Positions 16,485 through 21,754 of a DNA stretch of 64,000 bases are shown one piece after another. Location: sequence record OM386662.1, one strand, 5' to 3'. How positions within the stretch are numbered: the first letter of the stretch is position 1; the number at the start of each line of letters is the position of its first letter. Source of the DNA: Escherichia phage vB_EcoM_ESCO47. Below the pieces are notes generated by a model. That model was not told the DNA's origin. It saw only the letters and a program-made list of their open reading frames with translations, and made no database searches. A program made the translations under genes and the position numbers.

Positions 16485-17069
16485 ATGATTAAATTAGTAT
16501 TCGCATGTGCACCGACAAAAACCGTAGACGATAAAAACGAATATGCTTTTGGTCTTAATGACGGACTTCCATGGGGACGTATCAAAAAGGACCTTCAGAA
16601 TTTCAAGGCTCGCACTGAAGGAACTACAATGATTATGGGTGCTAAGACTTTCCAATCGTTGCCAGGATTATTACCAGGTCGAACTCATATTGTTGTAGCT
16701 GATATCTCCCGGGGCTATCCTGAAACTAAAGATGGCGACCTAGCTCATTTCTATATTACCTGGGCTGAATACATAGCTTTTGTAACCGGTGGCGAACTTC
16801 AGTTATCTAGCCCTAATGCACCATATAATCCAATTATTGGTCAAAATACCAATGTGAGTATTATTGGCGGTCCTGCTTTGTTAGAAGCTGCTCTTCCATA
16901 CGCTGATGAAATCATTATGACCAAAATTGTTAAGCGGCATCGTGTGAATTCTACGGTCCAATTGCCTATTTCTTTTGTCTGTAGTGTTATGCTTAATCGT
17001 ACTATGGTAGAATCTCATTACTATCAAATTGACGAATTAACTGAAATTACTGAGAGCATTTATAAATGA
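16485..17069 (+). CDS. frd: dihydrofolate reductase
   Basis: ORF 16461 starts at TTG; ATG at 16485 (AAGGA SD) gives 194 aa; MIKLVFA..GLPW..MG.KTF DHFR signature. Confidence 0.9.
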
Positions 17070-17926
17070 AACAATACCAATTCTTGATTAAAGATATTTT
17101 AGAAAATGGTTATGAAACCGACGACCGGACTGGCACAGGAACTATTGCACTATTTGGTACTAAATTGCGTTGGGATTTGACTAAAGGGTTCCCTGCAGTA
17201 ACAACCAAGAAATTAGCATGGAAAGCCTGTATTGCAGAACTTCTTTGGTTCCTATCAGGAAGTACTAACGTAAATGATCTGCGTCAGCGTACTCACGGCA
17301 GTCGAACCGAAGGTAAAACTATTTGGGATGAGAACTATGAAAACCAGGCAATTGGCTTAGGATATTCTGATGGTGAATTAGGTCCTGTATATGGGAAACA
17401 ATGGCGAGATTTTGGCGGTGTCGACCAAATTATAGAAGTTGTTGATTGTATTAAAAAACTGCCAAATGATCGGCGTCAAATTGTTTCTGCGTGGAATCCG
17501 GTCGATATTGACCAAATGGCTCTTCCTCCTTGTCATATGTTCTATCAATTTAATGTGCGTAATGGACATCTTGATTTACAATGGTATCAACGCAGTGTAG
17601 ATGTTTTCTTGGGCCTGCCGTTCAACATCGCCTCGTACGCCGCCTTGCTACATATTGTAGCGAAGATGTGTAACCTTATCCCAGGTGATTTAGTGTTCTC
17701 AGGCGGCAACACTCATATCTACAGCAATCATGTAGAACAATGCAAAGAAGTTCTTCGTCGTGAACCTAAAGAGTTGTGTTCTCTTGAAATTAATTGGCCT
17801 AGTAATTTTGAGAATTGGCCTACAAAAATCCAAATGGACTGGGTTACTGGAACGATGACACATTCTGATTTCGTTCTTAAAAATTACGAATCTCATCCAT
17901 CTATCAAAGCTAAAATGGCGGTATAA
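17066..17926 (+). CDS. td: thymidylate synthase, uninterrupted
   Basis: 286 aa contiguous; PPCH..QFNV active-site region; ATGA overlap with frd. Confidence 0.95.
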
Positions 17927-18181
17927 ATGATTTTACGTTTTATTAATTCATATGGCACCACAATTTTTGAAATAAAAAATCCTACCGAACTAGATATCCC
18001 TTCACCGAATAGTGAAATCACAGTTAAAGGTGAACGATTCATTTGTTATTCACACGAACGAATTTATGAATATCGCGAATTTTGTGGTGGTTACGGTATG
18101 GAAAAAGAACCATTGGTTTATTTCGATATCACGGTCTTGACACCTAAAGAATACAAAGAAATTATTGCTGAGGATAATTAA
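17927..18181 (+). CDS. hypothetical protein (nrdA.1 position)
   Basis: 84-aa ORF starting at td stop. Confidence 0.6.
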   Translation: MILRFINSYGTTIFEIKNPTELDIPSPNSEITVKGERFICYSHERIYEYREFCGGYGMEKEPLVYFDITVLTPKEYKEIIAEDN

Positions 18182-20524: not shown

Positions 20525-20575
20525 GAATTTTAATTATAATTGACTCATGGATGAGTCACTATTGAGAGAATATAA

Positions 20576-21754
20576 ATGAGTACAGTTTTTAATACACAAC
20601 AAGTTGATGTTTTGAACGAACCTATGTTCTTCGGTTCAGGTCTCGGTCTTGCACGTTACGATATTCAACGACATAAAGTTTTTGAAGAGCTTATCGAAAA
20701 GCAGCTCTCGTTCTTTTGGCGTCCCGAGGAAGTAAACTTGATGTTGGATTCAGCCCAGTTTAATAAGCTTCCACAGTTCCAACAGGACATCTTTACCAAC
20801 AACCTTAAGTATCAATCATTATTAGATTCTATCCAAGGCAGAGCACCATCTGCGGTACTTATGTCATTGCTTTCAGACCCTTCATTAGATACATGGGTCG
20901 CTACATGGACTTTCAGTGAAACTATTCACTCTCGTTCATATACTCATATTATGCGAAATCTTTATACAGATCCATCGAAAGTATTTGATGAGATTGTATT
21001 AGATGACGCAATTATGAAGCGTGCCGAATCTATCGGACGATATTATGATGATGTTCTGGTTAAAACTCGAGCTTGGGAAAATTCTAAAGAATTTGTAGAA
21101 CAAGCTAAAGAATCTCCTGATGCCGACCTTCGTTTAAACCAAGCTATTAAACAAGAGTCTGAAGCTAAACGAGACCTAATGAAATCTCTTTATCTTTGTT
21201 TGCATGTCATCAATGCATTGGAAGCTATTCGTTTTTACGTGTCTTTTGCTTGTACTTTCAACTTCCATAAGAATATGGAAATTATGGAAGGCAATGCGAA
21301 GATTATGAAGTTCATTGCTCGTGATGAACAGCTCCACCTCAAGGGCACTCAATATATTATTCGTGCTTTACAAGACGGTGAAGACGGTGATGAATGGGTC
21401 AAAATTGCTCAAGAGTGTGAACAAGAAGCAGTTGATATTTTCATGGAAGTTAACGCTCAAGAAAAAGAATGGGCTGAACACTTGTTTAAAGATGGTGCTC
21501 TTCCAGGCCTAAATGTTAAAATCCTAAGTGAATTTGTAGATTATCTAACCGTGTCTCGTATGCGTAGTTGCGGTCTACCATGTCCTCTTAAAGACATATC
21601 AACTCGTCATCCTATTCCATGGATTCGTGAGTATTTGAACTCTGATTTGGTTCAAGCTGCACCACAAGAAGTTGAGATCAGTTCTTATCTTGTCGCTCAA
21701 ATTGATAATGACGTCAACCAAGATGTAATAAATTCATACAAAAAATATTTCTAA
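20576..21754 (+). CDS. nrdB: ribonucleotide reductase small subunit, uninterrupted
   Basis: 392 aa contiguous; di-iron ligand-like ExxH regions. Confidence 0.95.
   Translation: MSTVFNTQQVDVLNEPMFFGSGLGLARYDIQRHKVFEELIEKQLSFFWRPEEVNLMLDSAQFNKLPQFQQDIFTNNLKYQSLLDSIQGRAPSAVLMSLLSDPSLDTWVATWTFSETIHSRSYTHIMRNLYTDPSKVFDEIVLDDAIMKRAESIGRYYDDVLVKTRAWENSKEFVEQAKESPDADLRLNQAIKQESEAKRDLMKSLYLCLHVINALEAIRFYVSFACTFNFHKNMEIMEGNAKIMKFIARDEQLHLKGTQYIIRALQDGEDGDEWVKIAQECEQEAVDIFMEVNAQEKEWAEHLFKDGALPGLNVKILSEFVDYLTVSRMRSCGLPCPLKDISTRHPIPWIREYLNSDLVQAAPQEVEISSYLVAQIDNDVNQDVINSYKKYF

Follow-up and report, generated by a model that had tools for sequence, protein, structure and literature searches.

Phage T4 carries homing endonuclease genes (HEGs), two of them within introns, at sites in and between genes that it shares with its relatives, and the question is whether a relative with the same gene order carries them as well. 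We address this question for 64,000 nucleotides of Escherichia phage vB_EcoM_ESCO47 (sequence record OM386662.1); this whole stretch is referred to as the window. An original prediction had claimed that td and nrdB are intron-free in this DNA and that the seg genes are missing from their usual T4 junctions. In T4 RefSeq, segD is located at 23/24, segE at inh/uvsW and segG at 32/59, and the td and nrdB introns encode I-TevI and a truncated I-TevIII, respectively; Table 1 of Edgell, Gibb and Belfort 2010 gives the same positions (PMC2988022), which agree with those named in the original prediction. Its five named elements stand, but its list is incomplete: mobE, which lies together with nrdB.1 in the 696-bp nrdA/nrdB spacer of T4, was left out, and the window has 51 bp there.

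All six T4 HEGs of the homologous span (I-TevI, I-TevIII, segG, segE, segD and mobE) are absent from the window, without remnants, and T4 has approximately 3.85 kb of DNA beyond that of the window at these six sites. These are deterministic statements of presence or absence, for which chance is no issue. We regard it as very probable that the window is part of a Mosigvirus-type genome, with all six T4 element sites unoccupied.

The six sites in the window

Both td and nrdB are uninterrupted: each is a single open reading frame (ORF) in the ORF listing, and they match Thymidylat_synt and Ribonuc_red_sm, respectively, in Pfam (Table 1). Alignment to T4 and relatives had been proposed as a check, and our multiple alignment of the window, APCEc01, 348Ecol098PP and T4 shows intron-sized gaps in the window at both sites. 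The position equivalent to the td intron lies between 17614 and 17615, with a gap opposite 1017 bp of T4 and 1016 bp of 348Ecol098PP; the position equivalent to the nrdB intron lies between 21251 and 21252, with a gap opposite 598 bp of T4 and 1091 bp of 348Ecol098PP. None of the three features expected of a group I intron (interruption of an ORF, an Intron_gpI core and similarity to T-even intron DNA) is found in the window. The slots contain neither an ORF with a GIY-YIG catalytic domain nor room for its ~200 codons, and there is no HNH ORF between nrdA and nrdB or in nrdB.

I-TevI recognizes a 5'-CNNNG-3' motif that lies 23–27 nt before the insertion site, together with a conserved binding region of 20 bp that has the insertion site at its centre (PMC2988022). 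In the window, CAACG occupies positions 17588–17592, which are −27 to −23 from the td insertion position, and the motif, its spacing and the binding region are all present; over that stretch, the sequence is that of the allele of the intron-less Mosigvirus APCEc01. Six bases of the 38-bp site differ from T4; among these differences are −1 T>C and +3 A>G, both of which are synonymous. Intron-bearing td alleles have T at −1 and A at +3, and a group I 5' splice site needs U at −1. Judged by its sequence, the td allele of the window is probably a plausible substrate of I-TevI and thus a potential intron recipient.

The 59/32 and uvsW/inh gaps are too short for a gene, as originally proposed. Inspection of the 59/32 spacer reveals a MotA-box-like TTATGCTTTG at 14664–14673, with a TATCGT −10 element 12 bp downstream, and a late-promoter motif, TATAAATA, at 14691–14698, followed by the gene 32 leader; ~560 bp of T4-only DNA align opposite the spacer. 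We infer that it is a compact control region of gene 32, in which promoters and operator are assigned from consensus motifs. In T4, the middle and late promoters of gene 32 are embedded in segG (PMC2988022), whereas the candidate promoters of the window are situated in plain spacer. The divergent uvsW/inh spacer, likewise 50 bp in Mosigvirus NHEP10, carries TATAAATA on its minus strand at 46531–46538, facing uvsW. For T4 segE, similar cases of embedded promoters have been reported. The nrdA/nrdB spacer, which aligns opposite 645 bp of T4-only DNA, comprises a hairpin with an 8-bp stem (TGACTCAT-GG-ATGAGTCA) and the nrdB ribosome-binding region. Finally, the start of gene 59 and the end of gene 33 overlap at 14007–14010 and the slot between them is empty, unlike in 348Ecol098PP, where an endonuclease ORF directly precedes 59.

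Table 1. Features of the window, with protein lengths in amino acids (aa)
Feature	Position	Strand	Description
ORF without T4 counterpart	1391–1678		phrog_8202, weak Arn-like match
ORF without T4 counterpart	1682–1840		phrog_5245
Gene 59	14007–14660	+	Helicase loader, 217 aa; 85% aa identity to T4 gp59
59/32 spacer	14661–14769	+	109 bp; segG site in T4
Gene 32	14770–15678	+	Single-stranded DNA-binding protein, 302 aa; 84% aa identity to T4 gp32
td	17066–17926	+	Thymidylate synthase, 286 aa, uninterrupted; Pfam Thymidylat_synt, profile 1–266/266, E=1e-97
I-TevI homing-site homologue	17588–17625	+	38 bp; 32/38 bases as in the spliced T4 site
nrdA.2 homologue	17927–18181	+	84 aa, DUF5496, phrog_2458
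nrdA	18269–20524	+	751 aa; 88% aa identity to T4 NrdA
nrdA/nrdB spacer	20525–20575	+	51 bp; T4 counterpart holds mobE and nrdB.1
nrdB	20576–21754	+	Ribonucleotide reductase small subunit, 392 aa, uninterrupted; Pfam Ribonuc_red_sm, E=8e-36
denA	21782–22192	+	Endonuclease II, 136 aa; Pfam GIY-YIG, E=5e-6; 76% aa identity to T4 DenA
ORF without T4 counterpart	25916–26140		phrog_3609
uvsW	44989–46503	-	504 aa; 87% aa identity to T4 UvsW
uvsW/inh divergent spacer	46504–46553		50 bp; segE site in T4
inh	46554–47222	+	222 aa
hoc	47232–48362	+	376 aa; T4-length, 86% identical to T4 Hoc
Gene 24	50059–51342	-	Capsid vertex protein, 427 aa; 96.5% aa identity to T4 gp24
23/24 slot	51343–51766		424 bp; 812 bp with segD in T4
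89-aa ORF	51444–51713	+	Antisense to 23/24; phrog_6003, E=2e-44; function-less annotation 'hypothetical protein'
Gene 23	51767–53335	-	Major capsid protein, 522 aa; 90% aa identity to T4 gp23

Searches for homing endonucleases and introns

Searches with proteins, profiles, DNA and covariance models agree that the backbone is without these selfish elements, as the original prediction had concluded, and their positive controls worked. In tblastn searches of the window, T4 SegD, SegE, SegG, MobE, I-TevI and I-TevIII gave nothing better than E=0.12 (SegD, SegE, SegG and I-TevI all had E≥0.73), and the best match of T4 NrdB.1 had E=3.7. As a control, nrdA.2, frd.1, frd.2, 24.2, 24.3, cd.2 and denA were recovered in the same run with E=1e-13 to 1e-71.

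We built a GIY-YIG hidden Markov model (HMM) from eight sequences (I-TevI, I-TevII, SegA, SegD, SegE, SegF, SegG and one Mosigvirus I-TevI) and an HNH HMM from MobB, MobC, MobE and three I-TevIII sequences, and ran both with filters off on all stop-to-stop segments of at least 25 aa in six frames. The best matches in the window have E=1.2 (GIY-YIG) and E=2.6 (HNH), as compared to 1e-54 to 1e-74 for the GIY-YIG controls (T4 and HEG-bearing relatives) and 1e-31 to 1e-80 for the HNH controls; since the controls sat in the training sets, they establish that the pipeline works and do not gauge its sensitivity. Such a search for GIY-YIG and HNH domains beyond denA had also been suggested as a check, and it yields none. 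Pfam scans of 20 window ORFs gave denA as the sole GIY-YIG match, and its product is a nuclease of host-DNA degradation and not a homing endonuclease.

At the DNA level (blastn, word size 7), the introns of T4 and 348Ecol098PP show only chance matches to the window (≤27 nt, E≥0.058). When the four HEG-bearing T4 spacers were used as queries, only two ends outside the HEGs matched beyond chance: the 68 bp that directly precede T4 gene 32 align to 14703–14770 with 78% identity, the remainder of the 690-bp query (segG) being unmatched, and the 35 bp of the T4 uvsW/inh spacer next to inh align to 46517–46551 with 91% identity, the segE part being unmatched.

The Rfam Intron_gpI covariance model has no match at E≤10 in 14000–23000 and none at E≤0.1 across the 64 kb, and the same model detects the td intron (36.2 bits, E=1.5e-6) and the nrdB intron (33.9 bits, E=7e-6) of 348Ecol098PP. 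A scan at the Rfam gathering threshold, which gave zero matches in the window, was set aside: 348Ecol098PP, which has both introns, also gave zero. These genuine T-even introns (3881–4897 and 8537–9629 of the 348Ecol098PP locus) score 34–36 bits, below the 50-bit gathering cut-off, and ORF-containing T-even introns therefore escape scans at that threshold. Neither intron cores nor HEG domains, the finding that the original prediction had named as speaking against it, were detected in these intervals.

No HEG family is found among the non-nested window ORFs of at least 50 aa, each of which is a collinear homologue of a non-HEG T4 gene or has an HEG-free Pfam or PHROGs result; the ORFs at the right end are gp16, gp15 and gp14 (Pfam, PHROGs). 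Two candidates were dismissed. The 330-aa ORF that replaces cd.1 is a DAHP synthase by Pfam. An HEG in or near uvsW had been suspected from the annotation 'DNA helicase (x2)' and from longer spans in relatives (28.5–50 kb); in NHEP10, these turned out to be uvsW plus uvsW.1, additional 30.x ORFs and a longer hoc, none of them an HEG.

The 23/24 slot contains only the 89-aa ORF, which the original prediction had called unrelated. Its slot and orientation are those of T4 segD, but the family to which it belongs is a different, unrelated one. We rejected the idea that it is a degenerate SegD: tblastn, phmmer and HMM searches reveal no similarity, and the ORF falls into a distinct conserved family, phrog_6003. 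In Pfam, it has only a sub-threshold match to DUF4859, and it is without a nuclease signature; an AlphaFold2 single-sequence model of the protein is all-helical, with low confidence (pLDDT 64.5). The ORF is conserved at ~94.5% in many Mosigvirus genomes, where it is annotated as 'hypothetical protein'. A sigma70-like promoter, TTTACA-17-TACTAT (51385–51413), and an AGGAG ribosome-binding site precede it (promoter scan), and a hairpin terminator at 51723–51742, which also faces gene 23, follows it (terminator scan). The region 51385–51742 is thus predicted to be a self-contained, Mosigvirus-specific cassette.

Relatives and the origin of the element-free state

The window is collinear with ~94–163 kb of the T4 genome in reverse orientation (tblastn with every non-nested ORF of at least 50 aa), but protein identities range from 39% to 97%, and DNA identity is 50–88% per 200-nt bin (alignment over 14–23 kb). 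The closest records in a phage collection of 50,697 records are Mosigvirus (RB69-like) genomes, at 88–98% nucleotide identity: ~88% over 14–24 kb, 97–98% over 25.7–28.5 kb, ~96% over 28.5–50 kb and ~94.5% over 50–53.4 kb. No record in this collection exceeds ~98% identity to the window in any stretch queried. The genus criterion of the International Committee on Taxonomy of Viruses is ~70% identity over the genome, and the species criterion is ~95%. Over its 64 kb, the window shows the high nucleotide identity and synteny that characterize the genus Mosigvirus, together with two accessory genes typical of that clade (DAHP synthase upstream of cd and the phrog_6003 ORF in the 23/24 slot), and it lacks the near-identity expected within the species Tequatrovirus T4. 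By these comparisons, the backbone is that of a Mosigvirus-type (RB69-like) T-even phage, a T4 relative rather than T4, which agrees with the original prediction.

Several relatives share the layout of the window. RB69 (Mosigvirus RB69, NC_004928) has the same order of 59, 32, frd.2, frd.1, frd, td (861 bp), nrdA.2, nrdA, nrdB and denA, with td and nrdB uninterrupted and a 59/32 gap of 116 bp (109 bp in the window), and it has been published as lacking HEGs (Petrov et al., PMC2993671). Its td and nrdA.2 are 91% identical to those of the window, at 9–12% nucleotide divergence in the block, whereas identity drops to 61–86% in frd and the 5' half of td; RB69 NrdB has 390 aa as compared to 392 aa, and RB69ORF245c is missing from the window. 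APCEc01 (Mosigvirus mar005p1 group) and other E. coli Mosigvirus isolates have the HEG-free layout, the 89-aa ORF in the 23/24 slot and DAHP synthase upstream of cd. T2 (Tequatrovirus), the recipient in T4 x T2 crosses, is without mobE and without the nrdB intron (PMC2790892). T4 itself has homologous host genes and insertion-site contexts but carries all six elements.

Other relatives, Mosigvirus-like phages with this same backbone, have been invaded. Unlike the window, 348Ecol098PP contains a 1016-bp td intron with I-TevI and a ~1.09-kb nrdB intron with I-TevIII, both endonucleases being full-length, and JK45 (filed under Tequatrovirus) has an nrdB intron; the nrdB exons of JK45 are the closest in the database to those of the window (93.2%). 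The td and nrdB introns of 348Ecol098PP are 90% and 98–99% identical to those of T4, respectively, but the flanking exons are only 70–79% identical. Since intron identity (90–99%) is far above exon identity (70–79%), the introns appear to be recent arrivals on an intron-free Mosigvirus-type backbone. The comparison speaks for a Mosigvirus backbone that is intron-free in its resident state and has sites open to invasion. Its pattern is that of recent horizontal intron transfer, which Sandegren and Sjöberg reportedly described for T-even phages in 2004.

We also carried out a census of junctions with 200-bp probes centred on the td and nrdB insertion positions; its counts are approximate, as the tool joins short ORF-less introns. 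The junction is contiguous in 706 of 1006 td-matching records (~70%) and 1055 of 1417 nrdB-matching records (~74%), and ~191 td and ~99 nrdB records have two separate match places, as in T4. In td of phage 235Ecol030PP (record positions 142553–143070), the probe matched in two pieces across only 518 bp, which suggests a short (~320-bp) ORF-less insertion or an intron remnant.

The 14–24 kb block stands out by its ~88% identity to the nearest relatives, as compared to 94–98% elsewhere in the window; APCEc01 and other E. coli Mosigvirus phages, for example, are 94–98% identical to the window in the cd, baseplate and capsid regions. Patches of 61–78% identity lie in frd, the td 5' half, the nrdA 3' end, an nrdB loop and rnlA, and across the block patches of 62–78% adjoin patches of 95–100%. 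Against every Mosigvirus compared, identity is 61–86% in frd and the 5' part of td; from ~17505 on, td is 94–100% identical. Two patches of ~100 bp (17400–17500 and 20000–20100) are nearer to T4 (92%) than to Mosigvirus (69–78%). In nrdB, positions 21070–21190 form a variable, indel-rich patch that ends ~60 bp before the insertion site, with indels typical of a variable protein loop. We tried to read these junctions as footprints of homing or intron loss and rejected this reading: the td switch at ~17505 is ~85 bp 5' of the cleavage position, and similar junctions occur throughout 14–24 kb. The patchiness is consistent with ordinary T-even mosaicism. In a more specific scenario, the 59–rnlA block would record repeated gene conversion, initiated by breaks at the homing sites of td and nrd and always repaired from element-less donors; the lineage would then have been attacked by homing endonucleases and yet have stayed element-free, possibly with the help of RB69-style exclusion. 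We consider this scenario very improbable.

How did the sites come to be empty? In the explanation that we favour, the T4 elements would be lineage-specific insertions spread by double-strand-break repair (homing), and the backbone of the window would never have been invaded at the six sites or would descend from uninvaded alleles. Its 59/32, nrdA/nrdB and uvsW/inh spacers contain just candidate promoters, a hairpin and leaders, and its 23/24 slot a small Mosigvirus-specific cassette. If the phage met an intron-bearing relative during mixed infection, it would most likely be the recipient, because the I-TevI-type target is kept (CAACG at −27 to −23; 32/38 identity). Four points weigh against this explanation or narrow it. 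The window covers 64 kb of a roughly 170-kb genome, and HEGs may exist elsewhere in the phage; the 89-aa ORF could conceivably have a role in mobility or exclusion, although its product shows no nuclease signature and is predicted to be all-helical; cleavage by I-TevI may be reduced by the six substitutions in its 38-bp site, −1 T>C and +3 A>G among them; and a backbone that was never invaded and one that has undergone clean secondary loss look alike on present evidence.

Such a loss, by which an ancestor with introns and some seg or mob genes would have shed them through recombination with element-less alleles in mixed infections or through precise deletion, is in our view unlikely. The strong mosaicism of 14–24 kb indicates that recombination repeatedly rewrote this region, the identity switch at ~17505 lies ~85 bp 5' of the I-TevI cleavage position, and a cyclical model of HEG gain and loss has been discussed (PMC2988022). 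However, that td junction coincides with neither the cleavage nor the insertion site and resembles others all over the region, the window contains no remnant of an intron or HEG, RB69, APCEc01 and most relatives are likewise empty, and the Mosigvirus introns look recently imported.

The same substitutions in the target, which include both positions flanking the td insertion site, could also indicate that the phage acquired resistance, either by divergence of its targets past cutting by T4-type endonucleases or by exclusion of HEG-bearing relatives. The nrdB insertion site is likewise surrounded by seven synonymous differences in ~40 bp, which would fit with this idea, as would the complete exclusion of T4 by RB69 (PMC2993671). 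We nevertheless consider it quite unlikely: the CNNNG motif is preserved at its proper spacing, and in the absence of a preferred site within range I-TevI resorts to the optimal distance, albeit less efficiently (PMC2988022). Moreover, Mosigvirus relatives have been invaded at both the td and nrdB sites, and the site shared with APCEc01 represents the common allele of the genus and no special escape variant. That the uninterrupted genes are an artefact of assembly collapse or of a chimeric or engineered sequence has next to no probability. A frameshift in frd.1 near 16346 and a nonsense codon in the 24.2 homologue at 48772 could hint at sequencing errors, but td and nrdB are equally continuous in the independently sequenced RB69 and APCEc01 and in hundreds of records, the reading frames and their Pfam coverage are complete, and the window is perfectly syntenic with T4 along its 64 kb.

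Gene content and significance

The genes of the window are arranged in the order arn to asiA, t, 38–34, rnh, dsbA, 33, 59, 32, frd.2, frd.1, frd, td, nrdA.2, nrdA, nrdB, denA, rnlA, alc, pseT, cd, 31, rIII, 30.x, 30, alt, 54-48-29-28-27-51, 26-25-uvsY, uvsW, inh, hoc, 24.3, 24.2, rnlB, 24, 23, 22, 21, 68, 67, 20, 19, 18, 17, 16, 15 and 14. T4's nrdA.1 is absent between td and nrdA. The DAHP synthase gene (phospho-2-dehydro-3-deoxyheptonate aldolase; 26829–27821, plus strand, 330 aa) takes the place of T4 cd.1 upstream of cd. It matches PF00793 (E=1e-75) and phrog_5045 (E=5e-181), is 97–98% identical in many Mosigvirus genomes, with ZQ3, HX01, JS09 and ST0 among those sharing it, and is a known auxiliary metabolic gene of the Mosigvirus clade.

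Two small genes appear to be disrupted. frd.1 (DUF5417; 16247–16479, plus strand) has a 1-nt deletion near 16346–16350 (GAAGAAAATTACG as compared to GAAGAAGCTTTACG in RB69), which puts its C-terminal half in another frame, and is either a pseudogene or the product of a sequencing error; there are two frd.1-type ORFs in APCEc01 and JK45 and one in the window and RB69. The 24.2 homologue (48655–48906, plus strand) carries CAA>TAA at 48772–48774 relative to NHEP10 and is truncated after 39 codons. Several small 30.x ORFs (30.3/30.4/30.6-type) of NHEP10 (2297–4252 of the locus compared) are absent from the window at 30796–31952, and the hoc region of NHEP10 is ~290 bp longer. The convergent rnlB/24 junction (49960–50132) has sub-threshold Rfam matches to MicX (32.6 bits, E=0.002) and Atu_C8 (E=0.08). 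These most likely reflect a hairpin that terminates transcription in both directions and not a small RNA.

The element-free state is already documented as the default for T4 relatives, RB69-type phages in particular, and is nothing special to this phage; it is T4 that reviews call the outlier among its relatives (PMC2988022). Taken alone, the result matters little: it places the window as Mosigvirus/RB69-type, with its sites in the normal state known from the literature. It has modest practical value: studies of homing or marker exclusion in which the partner carries introns or seg genes could use such a genome as a clean recipient, and the spacers of the window display the native layout of the gene 32 and uvsW/inh control signals.

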